The translations under genes were made by a program, and so were the position numbers. DNA of 64,000 bases from the sequence record OK040806, one strand, 5' to 3'. Source of the DNA: Escherichia phage CL1. Under the pieces are notes generated by a model. That model was not told the DNA's origin and did no database searches. It saw nothing but the letters and a program-made list of their open reading frames with translations. Positions 5,803-59,019 of this stretch are shown here, one piece after another (position 1 is the stretch's first letter; each line of letters opens with the position of its first letter).

Positions 5803-5806
5803 TTTC

Positions 5807-5835
5807 TTTACAGGGGCTTTATAGCCCCTTTTAAG
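5807..5835 (+). promoter_or_regulatory. TTTACA followed by GGGGCTTT-AT-AGCCCC stem-loop and TTTT between the two tail-fibre genes
   Basis: hairpin 5813-5828 followed by TTTT; could be weak terminator or promoter with hairpin in spacer. Confidence 0.4.
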
Positions 5836-5848
5836 AGGAAAATTTATA

Positions 5849-8200
5849 ATGGCAGATTACAAGTTGAGTGAATTAAACTCAATCGACACAATCCGTTCAG
5901 ACGACCTTCTTCATGTCAGGGTTAAAAAGAGACCTGAAATGCTAGGTGATGAAGACCGTCGAATGACCTATCAAGACTTCTTAGCATCTTTTAAACTAGA
6001 AAGATTTGTCCAGATTGCTGGCAGTACTATGACGGGTGACTTAGGAATTGTCAAGTTACTTTATGGTGGTAAGGTAGTATTTGACCCTACAGGTTCTTCT
6101 GGGATTACTATGGGGGATGTTTTAAAGACTTTTAAAATCAATGCAAACGGTCTTAAACTCACTATTGCAGATGCTTCAAGGTCTGCAACTGTTTATCATA
6201 CTCTTAATAAGCCAAGTCCTAATGAACTTGGGATGAGAACTAATGAAGAGAATGATGCAAGATATGCAAGACTTGCTGTAAATAACACCTTTAGGGCCAC
6301 TCAAAATATTCTATCTGATAATGAAACTATTATCGTTAAGAATGTTACACAAGGGATGCCGCTGTATATTCGCGGTCAAGATGCAGATGGCTCTAACAGG
6401 TGGTATCTAGGCAATGATAACAAAGGTACAGACAATCTTGTTTTAAAAAATGTTAAATCTGGTGCATATGTAGCTATTTTGGATAGCTTAATCACTGTGA
6501 ACAAATCTATCCAGATTACTGGTCAAGTTCAGCCTTCTGACTTCTCTAACTTAGATGCTAGATACTTTACTCAGACAGCAGCTAATCAGAGGTTTGCGCA
6601 GCTAGTTGGTAATAACACCTTCAGAGGTATTAATAATTTTGTAGGTGAGTTCAATATTACCAGAGATAATGCTGTGCTGGTCATTAAGAATGCCACTGCT
6701 GCAACTGGGTTGTACTTGCTTGGTCAGAAAGCTGATGGGACAAACAAGTTCTACTTAGGGACTGATGACTCTGATTCTGTAGTCAACCTACATAACTACA
6801 CCACGAGTACAACTATCTCTTTGTCAAATGTGATTACCACTACTAAGACTGTGAAAATCACTGGTCAAGTTCAGCCTTCTGATTGGGCTAACATTGACTC
6901 TAGATACATCCCAGCAGGAACTTTGAGTAACCTTGCTAAGCTAAGTGATGCAAATACTTTCAGGTCTGCACAGATTATTAATCGGGATGGCTCATTGTTA
7001 CAGCTAAAGAATACTACACAAGATGGAGAGCTATACTTTGCTGGTCATAATGCTGATGGTGTTAGAAGGTGGTACATTGGGAATGGGGAATCATCCAACC
7101 CAGAAAGACTTATTATCCATAACGGCAGAACTGCAACTACGATTTATATGCAAGATGATTTCTTGTTGAACAAAACTGTTAGAATCATTGGTCAAGTTCA
7201 ACCTTCTGATTGGACTAACTTAGATGCTAGATACTACGTTCAATCTGCAACAGATGCGAAGTACATCTGGTCAGCAGTCAGGGAGACAGTAAGAGCGGAG
7301 GATGGTGGTGTAGCTTGGAATAAACCTTCCGGAATCTATCTTGAGACAGTGCAGGGTGGTGGGGCAAACCGTTTAGTCTCACACATGTTCGTTAATACGG
7401 GAGCATCAACACCTGCTGCACAATTGATGTTTGGTTATAGAAATGGTGGAATGTGGTACAGAACAGCCAGAGATAGGGCTGGTTTTGAGGAGGATTGGTC
7501 TAAGGTTTACACAGAGGCTCAGAAACCAACCCCTTCAGAGATTGGTGCATACACTAAAACTGAAACTGACCAGAAGATTGCACAGGCAGTAAGTGACTCT
7601 ACAGACCTTAATAAAATCTATCCAGTGGGTATTGTGACATGGTTTAACAGTAATGTTGACCCTAATACAGCACTGCCTGGTCTAACTTGGACGTACCTCA
7701 ATAATGGTGTTGGTAGAACTATCAGAATTGCAGCAGCAAACGGTTCAGATGTTGCTACAACTGGTGGTTCAGACTCTGTGACGTTAGCTGTTGGGAACTT
7801 GCCTTCACACACTCACAGATTTTCTGCTACCACTTCATCTTTTGACTACGGAACAAAAAACACTAACACAACTGGTGCTCACACTCACTCTGTAAGTGGC
7901 TCTACTTCATCTGCTGGTAACCACAACCACTCCATTTCGTGGATTGGTCAGAACTCACAGCACTATTCTGGTGGTGGTGGTGCATACGTTGGTTCAGGGC
8001 CGGGTTACACCGATGCTAACGGTGCTCACACCCACACAATCTCTGGTACTGCTGCTTCTGCTGGTAACCATGCTCACTCAGTTGGTATTGGTGCTCACAG
8101 CCATACAGTAAGTGGTAACACTGGGGGTACAGGTTCTGGTTCAGCGTTTAGTGTTACTAACCAGTTCTACAAGTTAATGGCTTGGGTAAGAACTGCTTAA
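5849..8200 (+). CDS. tail fibre protein (internal tandem repeats, C-terminal HxH domain)
   Basis: 783 aa; three ~120-aa internal repeats each containing I[TI]GQVQPSD[FW]xN[LI]D[AS]RY; C-terminus HTHSV...GAHSHTV...GSGSAFSV...WVRTA parallels the upstream fibre. Confidence 0.6.
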
Positions 8201-12439: not shown

Positions 12440-12710
12440 CAGATTTTATAGCTTATCTGGCAGATTTTTTATAAGGCTACTGCCATCCTTCCATACCAAA
12501 CCATACAAGACATAGCCATACCCGACCGTACATCACCTCACAACACTTAAAAACCCTTTTTAGAAGACTCTTAAGTGGTGTAAGTCTCATTTTTATGTAG
12601 CTGAGACTAACTACCCATACTATACCGGACCGAACCTCACCCTACCGGACCAGACACTACCATACAACACCTCACCATACCTCATTAAAAGACCCTCTTA
12701 AAGACCTTTT

Positions 12711-12733
12711 AAAAAGGAGCCTCCGAAGAGGCT
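12711..12733 (-). terminator. intrinsic terminator after gene 12745..13185
   Basis: minus-strand AGCCTC-TTCG-GAGGCT stem followed by U-run (plus-strand A5 at 12711-12715). Confidence 0.6.
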
Positions 12734-12744
12734 ACCTAGTCAAC

Positions 12745-13185
12745 TTAGAAAGGTTTTCTACGTTGCTTGTTAATGTTAGCTTTCATAGCAGCTAAATGGT
12801 TTTGCTGTTCAATCAGTCGTGAACGTTCTTGATGGCTAAGTGCCATAGTGTTCACATTCTCAATCGCTTGAGTAGCTTGCTTTAAAGCTCGACCAATCTT
12901 GCCAGACATTTTACGTTTTGCAATAGTTGCTTGATGCTTAGGTTCAACCACACGATAACCAACACCCATTGAAGCAACCAGATAAATCTTCTCTTCTTTA
13001 AGAAGCTTCTCAATAAACTTCTCAAGTCGGTTTAGGCGTGTAAGCGCATAAGCCTTCATTTCATCTTCGTACTTAACAATGTCACCTTGATAAGTTGGCT
13101 TCACAATACCTAAGAAGGTGTCCATCTCAGAATGTGATACAGTGTCACCGTAACTAAACTTTGCTGCTAATGCTTTTGTATTCAT
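12745..13185 (-). CDS. hypothetical protein
   Basis: 146-aa ORF followed by a minus-strand intrinsic terminator. Confidence 0.4.
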   Translation of the reverse strand: MNTKALAAKFSYGDTVSHSEMDTFLGIVKPTYQGDIVKYEDEMKAYALTRLNRLEKFIEKLLKEEKIYLVASMGVGYRVVEPKHQATIAKRKMSGKIGRALKQATQAIENVNTMALSHQERSRLIEQQNHLAAMKANINKQRRKPF

Positions 13186-14221: not shown

Positions 14222-15325
14222 TTATTCATAATCTCGTATAACTAGCCCAACAGGGAACTGTAAAGAACCCTTACGAGTCATCTTCTGGAACTGAACCGTT
14301 AAAGGTTTCCCAATAAACTCTTCAGGATGCTCAGCAAGATACTGTTTCTTCTCATGAGTAGTCTTCCATGAAACATCTACAAAGACGTTAGGAAGAGTCT
14401 CTACAACGAACTTACCATGACCCCGCTTATCGGTCTTGATACCAGTCACTTTAAACTCTTCAGTGTGCATCTTCTTGTGCTTAATCAAGAAGTATGAACG
14501 GTGACAACACTCATAGAAGGAGTCTTCAGAGATTGAACGGTACATTGCACCTTCAAACTTAGCTTCAACCCACTTATCATGAGCTTCATCAAACTCTTCC
14601 CAAGAATTTACACGACGAGACTTAACAGGAACAACTTTACAGCCGTCTCTGAAGTCATTCAATGGTGAAGTCTCAATAATATCTCTACGCTCAGGCCACG
14701 TCTTAGTACTGTCACAGATATCGTACCAGTAAAACTTGAGCAAGTGTCTGTCAGGATTGTCTTCATTTTTAATCATGGAGACGATATCTTCTAAGTCCCA
14801 CCCATGAGCATAAATCTCTCCATCAAATTCATCAACATCTTTGTGGAGCCTTAACATTGCCATAATGTCAGGTATTAGTTCAGTAGGGATTTTATAAACA
14901 GTATTCTCACGAGAGTATGCTGTAAATACGCTACCAATGCTTAAGTGTCTTGAAATTCTACAACGTACACCATCAAGCTTCGGTTGAGCATCAGCAGGGA
15001 ATTTCAAATACTTTGCATGACTAACCTTTGCAGCATCATGAGCAAGCTGTACACCTACCTTCTCAGTGTTCTGTGCAGACTCTTTTGTGTAAGCATAACC
15101 TTTGCGGTCAACTTGCTTTTTATACTTAGCAGCAACTTCAAAGAGAGCTTGCTGTTCAGCGTTACGCTCATTCTTTTTACCGATGTTTTTAGGTTCTGCT
15201 GTATACTCTTCAAACATCATCTTGCCATTTTCTTTGCCATACGTGGTAACAACTTTGTCACCTACAGCGACACATGACCAGACGTTAAAAGAGCCATCTT
15301 TATTTTGTTTGTACAGTGTTGTCAT
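14222..15325 (-). CDS. ATP-dependent DNA ligase
   Basis: 367 aa with adenylation motif I (PKLDGVR) in a T7-ligase-like context. Confidence 0.75.
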   Translation of the reverse strand: MTTLYKQNKDGSFNVWSCVAVGDKVVTTYGKENGKMMFEEYTAEPKNIGKKNERNAEQQALFEVAAKYKKQVDRKGYAYTKESAQNTEKVGVQLAHDAAKVSHAKYLKFPADAQPKLDGVRCRISRHLSIGSVFTAYSRENTVYKIPTELIPDIMAMLRLHKDVDEFDGEIYAHGWDLEDIVSMIKNEDNPDRHLLKFYWYDICDSTKTWPERRDIIETSPLNDFRDGCKVVPVKSRRVNSWEEFDEAHDKWVEAKFEGAMYRSISEDSFYECCHRSYFLIKHKKMHTEEFKVTGIKTDKRGHGKFVVETLPNVFVDVSWKTTHEKKQYLAEHPEEFIGKPLTVQFQKMTRKGSLQFPVGLVIRDYE

Positions 15326-17169: not shown

Positions 17170-19866
17170 TTAGTGTACTTCAAGCCAGCTTTTACCAACC
17201 TTACCAGTACCTGTTACAAGTGTTTCTTTCTTAAGACCTAAGTTCTTAGAAGCTTGTCCATAATACCAGTCAGTAACTGCTTTCACTTCTGCCGTCATAC
17301 TCTCTGGACATTCCCAACTTGTTTCATCGTGATATGCGCAGAGCAAACGAGCACCAATAGCTGGTTGACGACCATTCAACTTCATCAACCCTTCGTCAAT
17401 CATACGACGACAAGCAAGGTTAATTGCCTCATTTTGAATCTGGGCCTCTGAACCCATCAGATAGTTCAACAGTTTGTGTGGAGATTTACACCACAACCAA
17501 GCTCCAGCAACCTTTACAAATCCCCCTTTAGAGATTGCAGCGGTCTTACCAAACACCTCTTCAAGTGCCTTTTTAGTTGCTTTGTAGTCAGCTTCCAAGT
17601 CATCTAGCAGCTTCTTAATTTTAGGCAAACGAATAAAGTAAGTCTGCTTAGTCAGTGCACCTTCCTGAGTAGTTGCAGCTTTAATTGTCTTAGCAAACTT
17701 CTCATCACCTGCACCGAACAGCAGTGCATAGATACCATTCTTAGCTTTCTTACGACCCTTGCTAATCTCATGAAGAAGGTTCTCATCCTGAGTAGCTCGA
17801 CAAGTTAAGATATCCTGCTCATCATTCAAGCTAAAGTAAATGCTGTTCAATGTGTGTGCATCAGTCCCTGAATAGACAACGTACAGGTCATTCTCAGAGT
17901 CATAGCGAAGGTACTTATCAATCTCTGGGTTGAGGTACTCATCAAAGTGTTTGCAGTAATAGCGCCCATCTTCTTGACGAATAAACTCAATTTCTTCTTT
18001 GCCTTGCGTTACCGCTTTGGTGAAGTCTTTGTCGCCCATAAAGTTACAAAGGAGAACTAGCTGGGCTGAGTTCATGTCGACAGAGACAACGTTAGTACCT
18101 TCTTCACAAATCCACACTGCCCTCATTGGTTCCCCATAGACAGCAGCACCAGACGGTACGTTTACAATACCATATTGTGTCATACGTCCAGTTGAAGTAC
18201 CAAATACCATTGCACCAGCACTAAGGCGACCATCAGGACGAATCTGGTTCAACCAGCCTTTTTCATCATCCTTTGAGTTCTCAATAGTTCTGCGTCGGTG
18301 CATCAAAGTGTAGTACTTAGCAATCTTCTGTCCAAGCTCACCTTCAATCGTATCGTAAGATGATTCAGTAAGTTTTGGTGAAGTACGGATTAAGCAAGGT
18401 TCAAGCAAGTCTGTGTATTTCTTCACAGACCAGTTATGCTCAATGTACTGGACACCTTCGTGTTCAACATAACTCAACCCACACCGTTCAACCATCTCCT
18501 GCCACTTAGGATGCTTTGTAATCATCTTTTTGTTGTCTTTGAAACGACAAACTTTGACAGGACGACCATCTGAGTCTTTCTTGTAGTTCCAGTCATCTGG
18601 AATCCAACCAACTGACTTCAAGTAGTCTTTAACAACTGCCACCTGAGTCATGCGAGAAACTTCGAACTCAATTGGTGTATATGGTGCATCAATTAACCCT
18701 GTGTAGCGACTTGACTCCAGTTCAAAGTGGTTAACAACATGGCTGTTATAGTACTTCACAGTCTTGACTGTTTTTACTGGCTTCCAGTCTTTGCATTTCT
18801 TACCAATCTTTGCATTCAACTCATTGCAAATTGCACGAGCATCCTTCATTGCTACAAAACCTTCCTTGTACTCTTCACCAGTTATGGAGTTGGTTGGTGT
18901 ATAGCAATTTCTCTTTTCAATGTTAAAAATCTTTGTAGTTGGCTTACCAAATGGCTTGATTTCATATGTCTGCATCTCACCGTTACGTACCTGCTGACGG
19001 TACTTCGTCTTAGGATACTTGGTAATCCTCTTCAGTCCATCTGCATGACCAAATGCTTCAACATACTCATTCCAAGCTTTTGCAAACTCTTCTCCAGTGA
19101 CTTTACCTTTGGTCTTAATAGTTGGAGGAAGGTGTGGTTCAACTTCCGAAGCAAGCTCATTAGTCAACTTGTCAAGCTCCTTTACATGGAACTCCATAAG
19201 CTCTTTATCAGCTTTCCAACCATTGATAGCTTGTTGACTCATCCAGAAAGATGTTTCTTTAGCTCGCATATAGGTTTCATAAGTGTCTATACCACACTTC
19301 TTTAACTTCAGGTATTCATTATCCAGTGCACGTTTAGTTTTGGCGTTAATACGGATATCTTCCACAACACGAGTGAAGATTTCTGCATTCCACACACCCC
19401 AATGTTCAATCTCTGGTTTACGTACACCAACACGAGCACCCCATGCAGCCAAGCCATGAGCACCTTTATAGCCTTTTGGAGTTGGTCTATCCATCCACTG
19501 AACACGAGACTGGATAAGAGAGTCCTGAAAGAAATTACTCCACGGTTTACACTTTGGATTATCAAAGTTCCACAAATCAGGTGCGATGTGATTGAAAACC
19601 CACCAGTCATATCCCAGACCATTATGGATGCAAAGTCGTTTTGCCTTTAACGCAAACTCAACACCTTCACGCAAGCCACCCTTAATGTACTTGGTATACT
19701 TGTGACCGAGGATAGGCTCATCTGTAAAGACCCATACAGGTGGCTCTTCATTGTCAGATTTATAGTCTGCGAAAGCCATTACGTGCACTTTAGTGAACTC
19801 AAGGAGTAAACCATCAGTTTCTGTATCACCAACTAAGTGTAAGTTTTTAAAATCTACGTTTTCCAT
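17170..19866 (-). CDS. DNA polymerase, family A, with N-terminal 3'-5' exonuclease domain
   Basis: Exo I-like GDTETDGL near N-terminus; motif A-like DMNSAQL, motif B-like K..K.NG.YALLFGAG, motif C YHDE; start at ATG with GAGGGAG SD. Confidence 0.85.
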   Translation of the reverse strand: MENVDFKNLHLVGDTETDGLLLEFTKVHVMAFADYKSDNEEPPVWVFTDEPILGHKYTKYIKGGLREGVEFALKAKRLCIHNGLGYDWWVFNHIAPDLWNFDNPKCKPWSNFFQDSLIQSRVQWMDRPTPKGYKGAHGLAAWGARVGVRKPEIEHWGVWNAEIFTRVVEDIRINAKTKRALDNEYLKLKKCGIDTYETYMRAKETSFWMSQQAINGWKADKELMEFHVKELDKLTNELASEVEPHLPPTIKTKGKVTGEEFAKAWNEYVEAFGHADGLKRITKYPKTKYRQQVRNGEMQTYEIKPFGKPTTKIFNIEKRNCYTPTNSITGEEYKEGFVAMKDARAICNELNAKIGKKCKDWKPVKTVKTVKYYNSHVVNHFELESSRYTGLIDAPYTPIEFEVSRMTQVAVVKDYLKSVGWIPDDWNYKKDSDGRPVKVCRFKDNKKMITKHPKWQEMVERCGLSYVEHEGVQYIEHNWSVKKYTDLLEPCLIRTSPKLTESSYDTIEGELGQKIAKYYTLMHRRRTIENSKDDEKGWLNQIRPDGRLSAGAMVFGTSTGRMTQYGIVNVPSGAAVYGEPMRAVWICEEGTNVVSVDMNSAQLVLLCNFMGDKDFTKAVTQGKEEIEFIRQEDGRYYCKHFDEYLNPEIDKYLRYDSENDLYVVYSGTDAHTLNSIYFSLNDEQDILTCRATQDENLLHEISKGRKKAKNGIYALLFGAGDEKFAKTIKAATTQEGALTKQTYFIRLPKIKKLLDDLEADYKATKKALEEVFGKTAAISKGGFVKVAGAWLWCKSPHKLLNYLMGSEAQIQNEAINLACRRMIDEGLMKLNGRQPAIGARLLCAYHDETSWECPESMTAEVKAVTDWYYGQASKNLGLKKETLVTGTGKVGKSWLEVH

Positions 19867-20123
19867 TTTTACTCCCTCTAAAATCATTAACCTCATACAT
19901 TACTGCAAAAAATTATAAAAAGCAAGTTGACAATGTACTTGACAAGGTGTTAATCTTTGCGAAGTGGGTTTTTACTTAAAAGGTTACTTAACAGTTTAAC
20001 TATACAGATACTTTAAAACTCTTAAAAGATTATTTAATAGCTTTTAAAAAGCTTTAAAGTATAACGTATAGAATACGTTAAGATAAAAGATTAAAACTTA
20101 ATAGTTACTTAAAAGAGGCTTAC

Positions 20124-22173: not shown

Positions 22174-22374
22174 ATGAAGATGAGAGTAAAAGATAATTTT
22201 AAAGTTATTGACCATCGTTTAGTGGAACTCTCATCTCTTTCCAATGAGGTAATGATTGAACGTCTTAAGAGAGTTGAATCACGAAGGAAAGAGATTGCAG
22301 ATGAAATTCATGAACTGGACAAGATTGAAAATGGATTGAAGGCAGAACTACAACGAAGAGGTGCTAATGTCTAA
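22174..22374 (+). CDS. hypothetical coiled-coil protein
   Basis: 66-aa ORF upstream of primase-helicase. Confidence 0.3.
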   Translation: MKMRVKDNFKVIDHRLVELSSLSNEVMIERLKRVESRRKEIADEIHELDKIENGLKAELQRRGANV

Positions 22375-24352
22375 AGGTCGTAAATTGAAAGAGGCTGGTC
22401 AGTTTATTGGTCATTGTGCATGTCCACGTTGTGGTTCATCAGATGCTGGTTCAATCTACCATCATGACGATGATTCTTATTCGATGACTTGCTTTAGCTG
22501 TAACAAAGGTTTCCCAGAGTGGGATTTTGATAAAGGACAAATCGTGAGCACTTATTCTACTGGTTCAGACAATAAAAACCGTACTTTCCGTGGAATGGAT
22601 TTAGACGATGTAAAAGAAAACCTAGAAGCAATGGACTTGAAAGACAGGAAGATTCCTGCAAAAGTCCTTGAACGTTTAGGTATCAAGGTTGACATTGATA
22701 GTGACGGTGAAATTGATGCACATTTCTATCCGACATACAAACGTAATGAAGATGGTAAGCTAGAACATGTCGGCTACCGTGTTCGTCACCGTTACCCAGA
22801 AGACCATCCAAAAGAACACCTACGTGGTAAGCTAAAAGACTTTTCAGGCGGTGTTGGAGACATTAAAGGTGAACTGGCAATGTTCGGTTCATGGATTGCT
22901 CCAGAAGGTGGTAATCGTCTGTTCATCTGGGAAGGTGAGATGGAATGCGCTACAGCAATCTACATGACTTCTTTGGCGATTAAAGATAAGTCTCGTCGTA
23001 AGAATTACTGTCACGTATCTGTTCCATCAGGTGCAAACATTAAATCTATCAAAGACAACTACCAGTACATCACATCATTTGATGAGATTTACTTATGCTT
23101 TGATAATGATGAAGCAGGTGCTAAAGCTACCAAAGAGGCTGCTGGTATCCTTCCGATTGAGAAGGTTCGCTTATTCCAGTATCCAGAGGGTGTAAAAGAC
23201 CTTAACGAATGGTGGACAAAGTTCTATAAAGAGAAAGATACAGTTCTGGAAGGATTTAAGCAGCGTATCTACAATGCACCTCGTTACTGCCCTGCTGGTA
23301 TCAAGAACTTTGCAGATGGTTTTGAGGCAATGAAGAATCGTGGTCAGATTCCATTGATTCCTTTCCCAGAATCTTTCGGGGATTTGAACAGACTGACTTA
23401 CGGTGGTTATGGGTTAGGTGAGATTACAACTTTGGCAGCACCATCTTCAGTAGGTAAATCGGCATACACCCGTGAAATGATTTACACTGCTTGGAAAGAA
23501 ACTGACTATAATATTGGTGTAATTCCGGTAGAAGATACCTATGAAGAGTTGATGGAGATGCTCTGTGCAATCCACCTTAGCAAGCAGATTTCTGAGATTC
23601 CTTATGATGAACGAGATTGGGATGAATTAAAGGAAGCACACGCAGAACTATCTAAAGGTCGTCGTATCCACATCGTAGACCATCAAGGGGCAATTGACCA
23701 AGATAACCTGCTTGAGTTTGTTGACTATCTTGTTAATAGTTTAGACTGTAAGATTATCATTCTTGACCCTATTACGTTGGCTCTGTCACGTTCAGATACG
23801 GATGAGGAGGAAGTTTTGTCTGAGCTATTGCGTCGTTGCAAACGCTACCAGTATGCACAGGTAAACGTCTGTCACGTTCGTAAGAGTGCAGGTGGTCAGA
23901 AAGCTAACTCTGAAGGTGGAGATATCTCTGAAGAGGACATTAAAGGCTCTGGTGCGTATTTCCAGATTTCCATGAACAACATCCTGTTAATGCGTAACAA
24001 GGTTGACCCAGACCCTGTTAAGAAAAACTTGACAAAAATCAAGTTAACTAAGTGTCGTCGTCATGGTAAGTCAACAGGTATTGCTGGTCATACTTGGTAC
24101 AATCCAGACACAGGGCGTCTTATCAAAGCTTCTGGGTGTGGTGTTGACATTGATGGTGCAGCAGAAAATATCCGTCAGCAGTTTGGCATTGGTGAAGCTG
24201 AAGACCATTATGACGACTCTTTACCTCATTATGATGATGAAGTATTTGACCGTGAGACTGGTGAAGTTTATACTGAAGAACAGCGTCAAAGCTCAACGAT
24301 TCCACCTGTATTAAGTGAGGATGCAGATGACTGCCCATTCGAAACTGAATGA
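22367..24352 (+). CDS. DNA primase-helicase (T7 gp4-like)
   Basis: N-terminal Cys4 zinc motif (CPRCGSS...CFSCNKG), central TOPRIM-like region, C-terminal DnaB-type Walker A (PSSVGKSAYT) and Walker B (IIILDP); track start is GTG, moved to ATG. Confidence 0.75.
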   Translation: MSKGRKLKEAGQFIGHCACPRCGSSDAGSIYHHDDDSYSMTCFSCNKGFPEWDFDKGQIVSTYSTGSDNKNRTFRGMDLDDVKENLEAMDLKDRKIPAKVLERLGIKVDIDSDGEIDAHFYPTYKRNEDGKLEHVGYRVRHRYPEDHPKEHLRGKLKDFSGGVGDIKGELAMFGSWIAPEGGNRLFIWEGEMECATAIYMTSLAIKDKSRRKNYCHVSVPSGANIKSIKDNYQYITSFDEIYLCFDNDEAGAKATKEAAGILPIEKVRLFQYPEGVKDLNEWWTKFYKEKDTVLEGFKQRIYNAPRYCPAGIKNFADGFEAMKNRGQIPLIPFPESFGDLNRLTYGGYGLGEITTLAAPSSVGKSAYTREMIYTAWKETDYNIGVIPVEDTYEELMEMLCAIHLSKQISEIPYDERDWDELKEAHAELSKGRRIHIVDHQGAIDQDNLLEFVDYLVNSLDCKIIILDPITLALSRSDTDEEEVLSELLRRCKRYQYAQVNVCHVRKSAGGQKANSEGGDISEEDIKGSGAYFQISMNNILLMRNKVDPDPVKKNLTKIKLTKCRRHGKSTGIAGHTWYNPDTGRLIKASGCGVDIDGAAENIRQQFGIGEAEDHYDDSLPHYDDEVFDRETGEVYTEEQRQSSTIPPVLSEDADDCPFETE

Positions 24353-50765: not shown

Positions 50766-50822
50766 AGTACTTTACAGGGGGCTTAAAAGCTGATATCTTA
50801 AGCCCCAGATAAAGAGCTTTAC
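50763..50822 (+). promoter_or_regulatory. cassette A copy 1: TAAAGTACTTTA palindrome, -35 TTTACA, inverted repeat GGGGGCTTAA-N11-TTAAGCCCC enclosing -10 (TATCTT), then ATAAAGAGCTTTAC
   Basis: TTTACA 50771-50776, 17-bp spacer, TATCTT 50794-50799; IR 50777-50806. Confidence 0.5.
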
Positions 50823-55430: not shown

Positions 55431-55559
55431 TCAATAACTTACAAAAAACTTTTAAAAAAGTGTTGACAATACCCCTTGACATTGGTAACTTTGTTCGAGG
55501 GGGTTTATCTAAAAGGGATTAACTTAAAAGATTCTTTATAGATAAACTTAAAAAATTGC

Positions 55560-56579: not shown

Positions 56580-56828
56580 ATGGCAACTATCCGCGCAACT
56601 ATCAATGCTTATGGCTGTTATACTCTGGACGTTAAATTTGATATTGGTGGAACTGATGAATGCTTTTCATTAGTGAAGACAGTTATCAAGCAAGTTATCC
56701 CAGATTATAACCCTACTGATGACTTCTGGAAAGATGCTGTAAAAGAGGCATTAAACGATGAGCATCACTATCATTACTGGGGTGACTTGATTGTCTCCCT
56801 GTACTACAATAAACAAGGTTACAACTAA
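56580..56828 (+). CDS. hypothetical protein (array gene 15)
   Basis: 82 aa; cassette B upstream; followed by terminator. Confidence 0.45.
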   Translation: MATIRATINAYGCYTLDVKFDIGGTDECFSLVKTVIKQVIPDYNPTDDFWKDAVKEALNDEHHYHYWGDLIVSLYYNKQGYN

Positions 56829-56838
56829 TCGACGCAGC

Positions 56839-56888
56839 GGGGCTAAATAGCCCCAGATACCTTTACAGCCCCTTAAATGGGCTTTTTT
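56839..56888 (+). terminator. array-terminal hairpin pair: GGGGCT-AAAT-AGCCCC then intrinsic terminator
   Basis: hairpin 56839-56854; second stem AGCCC-loop-GGGCT 56867-56883 followed by TTTTTT. Confidence 0.6.
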
Positions 56889-58470
56889 ACGTCTTATTAA
56901 ATCCTTTCCCTTTCCTTTCCAGAATCTTACTAGACCTTAAAAGCAATAACTCTATAGTCTACTCTATAGCCTTTTATCAAATCAACTTAAATATAAGCCC
57001 ATAACCCGAAAGGGAAGGGCAACCATTTAAACGCTCTATAAAGCCCTATAACAGCCTTATCAACCTAACTTAAGGGATTGCATTACTCCACGCTTAAAAG
57101 CTCTTTATAAAGCTTCTCAGAGCCTTAAAAGAATCTTATAAGGGTGTAAGCTTTATCATCTCGTTAGTATCTTGTGAATAACTAAAAAGGGCTTGTTAGT
57201 GTCTTAAAAGTATGTTATAGGGGCTATAAAGTTGCTTAAAAGTTGCTATAAAGTTACGTAAATGCTAGCCCCCTTAACATTTTCTTAACAAATTTTTAAC
57301 AATCCCTACATAGTTATGCTTTTAAGGCACTTGTTAACAACTTGTTAGCCCCTTGTTAAATCTCTGTTAAGACCACGTAAAAGCCTTGTAAGAGTCTTTG
57401 ACATAGCCTTAAAAGCTCCTGTAAAGCCCTATAAAGAGCTTTCTATATAGTTGGGGTGCAATTACTAGGGAGAGGCTTAAAAGAGCTTACAAAGAGCTAT
57501 AGAGAGCTTTTAAGAGGGCTATTTAAAGGGTCACTAAGAGGGAAAGGGAACTATAGACCAAGAGATAGTGACCATGTTAATAGCTTGTTAAAAAGATTAA
57601 ACACTTGTTAGGAACTTGTTAATTATCTTAACAAAATAACTCTTAAAAATTAACTTGTTAGCTCTTGTTAGTCATCTGTTAAGACTCTGTAAAGCCTACG
57701 TATCAACTGTTAAAAAACTGTTAAGCTCTTGTTAGTTCTGTTAAGAATCTGTTAAGACCTCTGAAGAGATGTTAAGAAGATGTAGCAACTGTTAAGAGAT
57801 TGTTAATGATATTTTAAAATTTTGCAAAGGGGATGTTACAGGGATGTTAAGGGCTACCAAGCAGATATATATCTTCTACAGATATTTTTGAGTTCCTTCA
57901 AAGACCCTAAAAAATGACTTGATAGCTCTATTTTATAAAAATTTTAAAATTCTGAATAATTACCTAGACAGTCTTTTAAAAATACAGGTAGAAACAGGCT
58001 TATAAGATACCTTGTTAGTACCGTGTTAGACCTTGTGAGATAAGGTCTGTAAAGATATTCCTGTTAAGTTTGCTAAAACAGTCTATATAGAGGCTTAGTA
58101 TTTCCTAGTGAACACCTATAGAGAGTGTCATAGCTGACATAGAGATTAAGAGGTGTATAGGAGCTTCTAAGAGGGTATAGAGGGATGGTTAAGGTGATTG
58201 TATAGGTTGTTAAGAAGGCTTGTTAGAAGAGTGTTTAAAGGGCTTGTTAGAGGGTTATTTAGAAGGCTTATACAGAGGGGCTATTAAGACCACTAGATAG
58301 TGACTAAGATACTATATAGTACTATATAACTATATAGAGAGTAAGATTAAGAAGGTTGTTAAGAAGGGTAGATATTTTATTCACATATGATGGTGACCCA
58401 GAGGTTGGGACAACCGATGAAATTTTATAAAAATTAAAAAGCCCCCAATTAAGGAGGCTCTTAAGATATT
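56889..58470. repeat. 1.6-kb ORF-free region dense in short degenerate repeats
   Basis: no ORF of 60 aa or more on either strand; >30 copies of YTGTTAR often phased ~11 bp (57330-57830); CTTAAAAG/CTATAAAG family (56930-57300); ACTATATA x3 (58308-58340); lies between convergent blocks. Confidence 0.7.
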
Positions 58471-59019
58471 TTAAATCAGTGTTTCCAGAACTGTCTTCAG
58501 TGATGACTTGGTTGTCTGATAAAAATGAGCAAATCCATTGTTACTATCGAATATCTGCATCATGATATCATCTCCCTTGATTGGGTACACTCGGATATCA
58601 TAGTGGAACCCATTAAAGACAGCAGAACCATTACAGAATGAACTAAAGTCATCCACTGAGATATACTCTTCATGACCTGTGATTTTTATACAAACACCTT
58701 TACTCGGTCTCTTAGGGTTGATATCTTCCATCACAGACATATTCTGTCCACCAAGAGACACCATAGTGACCACTTTACGGTTCTTCTGTCTAAAGTACAT
58801 CTTAACTTTCTGCAAAGTGTCTTCATAGAACGGATAAGACCTTTCTACAAAGATTCCTTCAAGTGGCTCTTTACCATTTTCAACTTCTCGGTTATGCCGT
58901 ACTGCAAAGATAATCTGTTCGAACCAGTCAAGATTTTCTTCGGAGAGTGCTTCCCGAATATCACTCCAATCAAGGACTAGATAGTTACCTTCAACTTCTT
59001 TTAAGTTATCTTTTTCCAT
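58471..59019 (-). CDS. hypothetical protein
   Basis: track start is TTG; first ATG (MEKDNL) used; first gene after the 1.6-kb ORF-free region. Confidence 0.35.
   Translation of the reverse strand: MEKDNLKEVEGNYLVLDWSDIREALSEENLDWFEQIIFAVRHNREVENGKEPLEGIFVERSYPFYEDTLQKVKMYFRQKNRKVVTMVSLGGQNMSVMEDINPKRPSKGVCIKITGHEEYISVDDFSSFCNGSAVFNGFHYDIRVYPIKGDDIMMQIFDSNNGFAHFYQTTKSSLKTVLETLI

Follow-up and report, generated by a model that had tools for sequence, protein, structure and literature searches.

What is the function of a 1.6-kb stretch without genes in the genome of Escherichia phage CL1 (sequence record OK040806)? The stretch, here called the junction, spans positions 56889–58470 of the 64,000-nucleotide DNA that was analyzed (the window), all of which is Felixounavirus sequence, 99.9% identical to Escherichia phage C600M2. 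By homology to relatives with mapped genome ends, the junction corresponds to the genome terminus, i.e., the concatemer junction, and the ends of CL1 itself would lie within it. The phased motifs that it carries would act as a platform for packaging and end recognition. We consider this explanation, taken as a whole, probable (roughly 0.7). The location of the terminus and a direct terminal repeat (DTR) of ~600 bp have already been published for the genus, and the element is of an expected kind, not a new system.

The lead came from GenBank records, several independent ones of which start or stop inside the junction at the same point. Exact terminal duplications, with the first and last stretches 100% identical, were found in the records of Ro111lw (613 bp) and CRP22 (579 bp). 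Both duplications begin with GCCCCCTTAACA, which corresponds to window position 57268, and end with ...GTTAAGGGCTACC, which corresponds to 57858. Other records open close to the same left boundary, namely NBEco004 at 57268, ECOH1 within ~5 nt and BPS15Q2 at 57254 (14 nt off). The record of the far more distant Erwinia phage Prophecy opens at the homologous point, with AGCCACTTTTACATTTCGTTAACAAC.

These record ends agree with published mapping. In the Felix O1-like phage UAB_Phi87, an exact 608-bp DTR was determined by time-limited Bal31 digestion and sequencing run-off, and Bal31-sensitive SpeI fragments showed that the ends are fixed (Bardina et al. 2016, PMC4837284). As printed in Fig. S1 of that work, the repeat starts with AACATTTTCTTAACAA and ends with GATGTTAAGGGCTACCAA. 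It aligns to ~57276–57860, with 88% identity between the window and the homologous UAB_Phi87 segment. With the same flanking genes, convergent layout and boundary blocks, at ~88% identity, the UAB_Phi87 DTR is the same element as the one in CL1; that study dealt with end mapping only (PMC4837284). The study also places the TerL proteins of Felix O1-type phages in a DTR cluster of their own. For the Felixounavirus Pr103Blw, PhageTerm reports DTR packaging with 581-bp repeats (PMC8303462). Thus, the mapped DTR of UAB_Phi87 and the exact DTRs of Ro111lw and CRP22 all fall inside the region for which the sequence-only reading had proposed a genome terminus or packaging role. By this homology, the virion DNA of CL1 would begin at ...GCTA/GCCCCCTTAACA and end at ...TGTTAAGGGCTACC/ (the slash marks the end), with the DTR at both ends.

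Some candidate evidence was set aside. The GenBank record of UAB_Phi87 was dropped as direct proof, as it is not opened at the ends, and the DTR from the published supplement was used. The "terminal repeats" of KMM2 (64 bp) and NJ12 (127 bp) appear to be assembly overlaps and not the true DTR of ~590 bp; both assemblies break inside the DTR, and the "complete, DTR" flag in the KMM2 paper rests on an assembly artifact. A scan of IMG/VR for three TTAACA motifs 11 bp apart returned mostly unrelated contigs and added no evidence on the terminus.

Both DTR boundaries are marked by a composite site, TGTTA-N1-2-G3-5-CTA (TGTTAAGGG(GG)CTA), of which only three copies occur in the 64 kb, all of them in the junction:

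57266–57279, minus strand: composite site at the left boundary, TGTTAAGGGGGCTA
57845–57856, plus strand: composite site at the right boundary, TGTTAAGGGCTA
57213–57226: third copy, in the flank before the DTR (sub-region A)

The two boundary copies are mutually inverted and point outward, and both are kept in 12 of the 14 sequences that were aligned (Felixounavirus, Suspvirus and Mooglevirus types, with the CL1 window included). In the same alignment, the left block GTTACGTAAAWGCTA/GCCCCCTTAACATTTTCTTAACAA is nearly invariant, with two variable columns, as is the right block TGTTAAGGGCTACC/AAGCAGATATA, with one variable column; the latter is also partly kept in Prophecy. Symmetric recognition of the two boundary sites is likely, and an identical cut geometry at both is unproven. 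Hairpin-prone cut sites, as in the hairpin model for T7, were rejected, as the boundary regions fold no better than shuffled sequences.

The junction as a whole is made up of the DTR equivalent and two non-coding flanks. In order along the window, its parts are:

56889–57267: sub-region A, the non-coding flank before the DTR; unique DNA beside the right-end copy in the virion
57253–57301: left-terminus block, GTTACGTAAATGCTA/GCCCCCTTAACATTTTCTTAACAAATTTTTAACA (from record ends, run-off sequencing and alignment)
57268–57858: sub-region B, the DTR equivalent, 591 bp, ±8 bp (by homology to mapped DTRs)
57274–57301, minus strand: three YTAACA motifs 11 bp apart, just inside the left end
57332–57370, plus strand: TGTTAR array 1, four copies exactly 11 bp apart
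57403–57520, plus strand: cluster of CTTAAAAG, CTGTAAAG, CTATAAAG and GCTTACAAAG inside the DTR, with a 10–11-bp period
57529–57573: central inverted repeat, GGTCACTA ... TAGTGACC, near the DTR midpoint
57575–57851, plus strand: TGTTAR arrays 2–4, 17 copies and one TGTTAC, up to the right end of the DTR
57838–57875: right-terminus block, ATGTTAAGGGCTACC/AAGCAGATATA (from record ends, run-off sequencing and alignment)
57859–58470: sub-region C, the non-coding flank after the DTR; unique DNA beside the left-end copy

Each concatemer junction would hold one copy of the DTR, and the virion DNA would carry a copy at either end. Sub-region A has a C-rich top strand with CTTAAAAG, CTATAAAG and CTCTATAG-type motifs, often 10–11 bp apart. 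In sub-region B, TGTTAR array 1 and the YTAACA triplet form an inverted pair, and from ~57315 rightward nearly all motifs point right; the GC skew changes sign there. The copies in arrays 2–4 are spaced by 9–11, 20, 31, 33 and 39 bp. Sub-region C contains an AT-rich segment (57907–57986, guanine-cytosine content (GC) 0.20), TGTTAG motifs (58013–58067) and G-rich repeats with a 24-bp period (58208–58269). The arrays reach within 6–7 bp of both mapped ends, with 5–6 bases between.

The abundance and spacing of the motifs are far from random. On the plus strand, TGTTAR occurs 28 times in the 1582 bp of the junction, whereas the 62 kb outside it hold 57 copies. The TGTTA core was counted 30 times, compared to 2.9 ± 1.7 (maximum 9) in 300 dinucleotide shuffles, and the enrichment over the rest of the window was 93-fold for CTTGTTA and 142-fold for TTGTTAG. 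The sequence-only reading had counted more than 30 copies of YTGTTAR. The strong excess stands, and that number is slightly high, since the strict motif has 24 forward and 4 reverse copies (the TGTTA core has 30 and 6, respectively). The other repeat families that it named are also present, with CTTAAAAG found seven times, CTATAAAG four times and CTGTAAAG three times in the junction, and with three tandem ACTATATAG units at 58310–58338. Two of the four lowest-GC 80-bp windows of the 64 kb, and three of the ten lowest, lie in the junction.

The TGTTA cores are mostly 11 bp apart. Of the 29 gaps between successive cores, 13 measure 10–11 bp, whereas random placement averaged 1.2 such gaps and never exceeded 7 in 20,000 trials; this bears out the proposed spacing of about one helical turn. 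The recurring spacings (20, 31, 42 and 62 bp) are fitted best by a long-range period of 10.3 bp, and the TGTTA sites therefore lie on one face of the helix. Cooperative binding of a protein on this one face is a reasonable reading of the phasing, and it is strengthened by the 10.3-bp period, by insertions and deletions (indels) in whole repeat units and by the preservation of the architecture across genera (see below).

Motifs of the CT-N4-AG type 11 bp apart were also observed outside the junction, in intergenic DNA at 5806–5835, 19975–20030, 50770–50800 and 55523–55545. One example is CTTTACAG-GGG-CTTTATAG-CCC-CTTTTAAG around a terminator hairpin; another lies at ~20.0 kb in the gap between divergent promoters, where the GC is the lowest of the window. 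These may be terminator stems that share the motif by chance, or sites of the same protein.

Transcription converges on the junction from both sides. The plus-strand gene block stops at 56828 and the minus-strand block ends at 58471, and terminator-like hairpins face the gap from both directions:

56839–56854, plus strand: first hairpin at the end of the plus-strand block, GGGGCTAAATAGCCCC (from a terminator scan and sequence reading)
56867–56883, plus strand: second hairpin at the end of this block, AGCCCCTTAAATGGGCT followed by a T-run (terminator scan)
58462–58437, minus strand: terminator hairpin that closes the minus-strand gene block (terminator scan)

The AYO145A and Moogle records annotate terminators at sites homologous to both flanking terminators. 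Within 56889–58470, the longest open reading frames (ORFs) encode 51 and 31 amino acids, and none reaches 60. Hence, the gap is ORF-free and lies between converging transcription blocks, as had been claimed from the sequence. The GenBank records whose annotation was inspected give no function for this stretch. They show at most automatic repeat_region features, the two flanking terminators and short hypothetical ORFs. Several records (UAB_Phi87 at 14525–15312; Sl26; SME50) annotate "hypothetical proteins" of 25–50 amino acids inside the junction; these are probably annotation artifacts, as none of them is an ORF that the relatives share.

A long conserved non-coding stretch might also encode one or more structured RNAs. 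The central inverted repeat favors this idea, as it folds better as DNA than shuffled sequences do (z = -2.7); its conservation is 0.98, and the block at 57549–57588 is the best conserved one in the Suspvirus and Mooglevirus sequences. However, no Rfam family matched the region at threshold, and the best matches were to eukaryotic families at chance level. The region holds no tRNAs and no credible promoter, the terminators point inward from both sides, and the boundary regions, as noted, gain nothing in folding over shuffles. An RNA-encoding role is scarcely credible on this evidence.

The heptamer TAGTGAC, or its complement, occurs three times in the junction (57530–57536, 57566–57572 and 58298–58304). 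Two of these copies form the inverted repeat at the center of the DTR; the third is located in sub-region C, just before the ACTATATAG triplet. TAGTGAC may be a second, separate protein site.

The conservation of the junction was assessed among relatives. Approximately 200 phage records span the whole region at 82–92% identity, and Suspvirus and Mooglevirus phages cover it at 73–77% identity. In a closer comparison of 15 phages from four groups of Ounavirinae-type phages, all 15 kept an ORF-free junction of 1.4–1.8 kb with 18–28 TGTTAR motifs. The sequence-only reading had asked for conservation in related phages, and the layout recurred in every phage compared; it had also named conserved genes in relatives as an outcome that would speak against it, and all 15 junctions were free of them. 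In SUSP2 and Moogle, the three sub-regions are 79–83% identical, compared to 69–82% for the flanking genes, which align over less length. The junction sub-regions are conserved as well as the flanking protein genes, or better. Among Felixounavirus relatives, the identity of sub-region C is 93–94%.

Conservation is concentrated in the motifs. Motif cores scored 0.85 compared to 0.73 for spacers in Suspvirus and Mooglevirus, and 0.58 compared to 0.37 in Prophecy. Indels between relatives measure 11, 22 or 33 bp in sub-regions A and B and 24 bp in sub-region C, and none of 5–10 bp was found. The phasing is preserved because these indels come in whole repeat units. Prophecy, at only ~40% identity, has a reverse TAACA/TTACA run of four copies 11 bp apart at its left end and keeps forward TGTTAAG arrays in the DTR, with homologous arrays at 270–416. 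In its flank A, CTWWAAAG is replaced by TTCTAAR, with 11 copies. That the flank motif differs by genus within an otherwise unchanged architecture points to co-evolution with one binding protein, or possibly two, encoded by the phage.

These data bear on the simplest alternative, in which the junction has no sequence-specific function beyond the two cut sites and consists of slippage filler or decayed genes in a silent end region. Copy number does vary between relatives by whole repeat units, as slippage would give, and some GenBank records annotate short hypothetical ORFs here. However, filler would not be expected to be as conserved as the neighboring genes or better across genera, to be better conserved in motif cores than in spacers, or to keep its architecture in the Erwinia phage at ~40% identity. 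Slippage alone is also not expected to yield long-range phase coherence at 10.3 bp. Hidden or decayed genes were rejected, as no relative examined has an ORF of >90 stop-free codons at the junction. We regard this alternative as very improbable.

Patchy insertions of 24–25 bp, present in some sequences and absent in others, were observed at alignment columns 57873 and 58432 (ATGAGGTAGATTCTACCGAATCAA and TATAAATTTCGTAAATTTTACTCAA). Their distribution across genera suggests recombination between lineages within the junction.

How might such a region define genome ends? As in T7-type phages, recombination or annealing between DTRs would build concatemers with one DTR per junction. A terminase complex would then recognize the junction and cut at the two boundaries marked by the inverted TGTTAAGGG(GG)CTA sites, and the DTR would be duplicated by DNA synthesis. 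The TGTTAR arrays inside the DTR, together with the CTWWAAAG-type arrays in the flanks and at 57403–57520, would form a multi-site platform for cooperative binding on one face. The best guess for the binder is the small terminase subunit or an accessory end-recognition protein; once assembled, the complex would bend the DNA or wrap it, and would direct the cuts to the inverted boundary sites.

The closest analogue of these arrays, although not a family member, is the set of arrays at the T7 ends. Both phages have a short exact DTR, a non-coding junction and a short motif inside and beside the repeat, and CL1 also has a replisome of T7 type. In T7, CCTAAAG lies at 17, 41 and 60 inside the 160-bp repeat, with at least eight copies at 175–340 at a 13-bp spacing and a few before the right-end repeat; the corresponding motifs of CL1 are TGTTAR/YTAACA inside the DTR and CTWWAAAG-type motifs with TGTTAG in the flanks. 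The T7 arrays reportedly received their names, SRL and SRR, from Dunn and Studier in 1983. In contrast to the 13-bp spacing of T7, TGTTAR in CL1 is spaced by 11 bp with 10.3-bp long-range phasing. The CL1 DTR is four times longer than that of T7, and its junction measures ~1.6 kb. T7 promoters and origins point inward from the left end, whereas both gene blocks of CL1 converge on the junction. Finally, the CL1 phage is a myovirus and T7 a podovirus, and no homology between their arrays is visible by eye.

Terminase sites built of phased repeats for the small subunit are also known from other packaging systems, namely the R-sites of lambda cosB, the hexamers of P1 pac and SPP1 pacL/pacR. In these sites, as in CL1, short repeats flank the cut point and are phased at about one helical turn, which by analogy is consistent with DNA wrapping around an oligomeric binding protein. 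The known sites are 100–200 bp long, lie in or beside terminase genes and serve cos or headful packaging. In CL1, by comparison, ~40 motifs are spread across 1.6 kb, the two precise cuts are separated by 591 bp, and the flanking ORFs scanned match no terminase family.

A more specific form of the packaging-platform explanation, drawn from sequence features, is that a phage protein polymerizes along one face of the DTR and its flanks. The resulting telomere-like filament would present the two inverted TGTTAAGGG(GG)CTA sites to the nuclease and fix the distance of 591 bp between the cuts. A second, genus-specific protein would read flank A, its motif being CTWWAAAG in the phages of E. coli, Salmonella and Citrobacter and TTCTAAR in the Erwinia phage. 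The filament complex might also fire replication or protect the ends. We offer this proposal tentatively and hold it possible but on balance doubtful. If true, the filament would define genome ends by a mechanism that has not been worked out in any phage with a DTR, including T7.

Several points weigh against the interpretation of the junction as a terminus with a recognition platform. The ends of CL1 are taken from relatives that are 88–91% identical across the DTR and flank. The left end differs by 8 bp between methods (57268 from records, ~57276 from run-off) and the right end by 2 bp (57858 and ~57860, respectively), and the mapped ends are 2–4 nt apart relative to the two composite-site copies. 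Slippage alone can produce repeat-unit indels, and aligners favor motif-to-motif matches. For these reasons, the core-versus-spacer and indel results are only soft evidence of selection on phasing. The binder was not found. Pfam and NCBIfam returned no family for the flanking genes, the PHROG families to which these belong are without an assigned function, and a PDB sequence search with the two proteins that abut the junction gave no informative match. Furthermore, no terminase gene was found near the junction, a statement made for 5 kb that comes from a scan of ten ORFs covering most of 3 kb on each side. There was no terminase among the window ORFs scanned, and the TerL gene is probably located outside the window. 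What the corresponding arrays do in T7 is not settled either. A 2026 paper also claims headful packaging for Felixounavirus SEP1 on the basis of PhageTerm alone; we gave this claim less weight than the wet-lab end mapping of UAB_Phi87.

The most serious rival accepts termini at this location and takes the arrays to be replication-origin iterons, with an initiator that binds TGTTAR and opens the AT-rich segment at 57907–57986; origin and packaging signals would then share one non-coding region. Iteron origins and plasmid centromeres with 11-bp repeats, such as lambda ori and R1 parC, likewise place numerous direct repeats, spaced by about one turn, beside an AT-rich segment, and phased direct repeats beside a segment of GC 0.20 resemble such an origin. 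These same features also suit a packaging site. From their positions in the T7 sequence, phiOL and phiOR, the promoters of the T7 secondary origins, flank the T7 junction, and this too counts for an origin, as do origin-like inverted TGTGTTAA arrays, 11 bp apart, upstream of MCM-helicase genes in unrelated viral contigs.

In contrast to known iteron origins and centromeres, CL1 has no cognate initiator or partition gene adjacent to the arrays, and the flanking proteins match no family. The arrays extend to the mapped ends, at 6–7 bp from them, a placement better suited to end recognition. The replisome encoded in the window is of T7 type and comes without an origin-binding protein:

14222–15325, minus strand: ATP-dependent ligase
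17170–19896, minus strand: family A polymerase
22361–24352: primase-helicase with Toprim and DnaB_C domains

T7 initiates replication by transcription and not by iteron binding. Matches to sigma-70 promoters in the region are weak and number 11, compared to 7.3 expected. Two identical DnaA-box-like TTATTCACA nonamers flank the DTR in inverted orientation (57173–57181 on the minus strand, 58377–58385 on the plus strand) and account for half of the TTATNCACA matches that the window contains, but most relatives have lost them. A DnaA-dependent origin was rejected, as the total of TTATNCACA matches in the window is that of chance and the two junction boxes are not conserved. The origin role that the sequence-only reading had listed among its candidates was thus left without positive support, and we consider it unlikely.

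The arrays in other viral contigs were noted in their own right. In IMG/VR 3300013103_000024, at 6700–6960, two inverted TGTGTTAAT arrays with 11-bp spacing surround a shared TCGATAGCAGTAG. The same layout occurs at 12650–12890 of an unrelated contig (GC 0.43). The arrays lie directly upstream of genes for MCM-family helicases of ~720 amino acids. They resemble phage replication origins of a family not yet described, with the TGTTAA core and the 11-bp spacing in common with the Felix O1 arrays.

The arrays could instead act on the incoming or resident genome, as a pause or anchor site for ejection, as an array for an end-protection protein or as an array for a host nucleoid protein. The injection-stop region of T5 offers a precedent, being a large untranslated, repeat- and palindrome-rich region in or by the terminal repeat that is conserved in its genus and acts in cis on DNA entry (Davison, bioRxiv 10.1101/866236). 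It differs from the junction in that it has eight DnaA boxes in a set order and is part of a 10-kb repeat, which codes for pre-early genes as well, whereas the repeat of CL1 is short and non-coding. In CL1, non-coding DNA would enter first from either end, with the genes on both sides described, for this argument, as pointing outward. The TGTTAAG motif of the DTR is common to phages of Escherichia, Salmonella, Citrobacter and Erwinia, as the target of a conserved host protein would be. However, an IHF consensus and conserved DnaA boxes are both absent from the region, the motif of flank A differs from one phage genus to another, which fits co-evolution with a phage protein better, and two-step injection is not reported for Felix O1-type phages in the literature searched. 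We consider these roles decidedly unlikely.

The assignment of the junction to the genome terminus explains the largest non-coding gap of Felix O1-type genomes. The phased arrays, the 1.6-kb junction architecture shared across the subfamily, the repeat-unit indels and the unique inverted boundary sites were searched for by term in the literature on Felix O1, wV8, UAB_Phi87, Pr103Blw and other phages, and the passages retrieved did not describe them. The genome papers of Felix O1 and wV8 list other repeats, and term searches of them did not bring up the junction region. The knockout screen in Bas63 targeted genes only, with 2–4 guide RNAs per gene.

Most GenBank records leave the junction unannotated or filled with doubtful small ORFs, and most open elsewhere. 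An orientation rule can be stated for them, according to which genomes start at GCCCCCTTAACA and end at TGTTAAGGGCTACC, with the ~590 bp between these duplicated. This concerns phages that are widely used for typing, biocontrol and therapy of Salmonella and E. coli. The conserved boundary sites and arrays are also concrete points at which the recognition and duplication of short exact terminal repeats can be studied, a step that is poorly understood even in T7.

A further feature concerns the window as a whole. GATC is absent from the 64 kb, compared to 182 ± 13 copies expected from dinucleotide shuffles, which implies very strong selection against Dam, MboI and DpnII-type sites or MutH targets.

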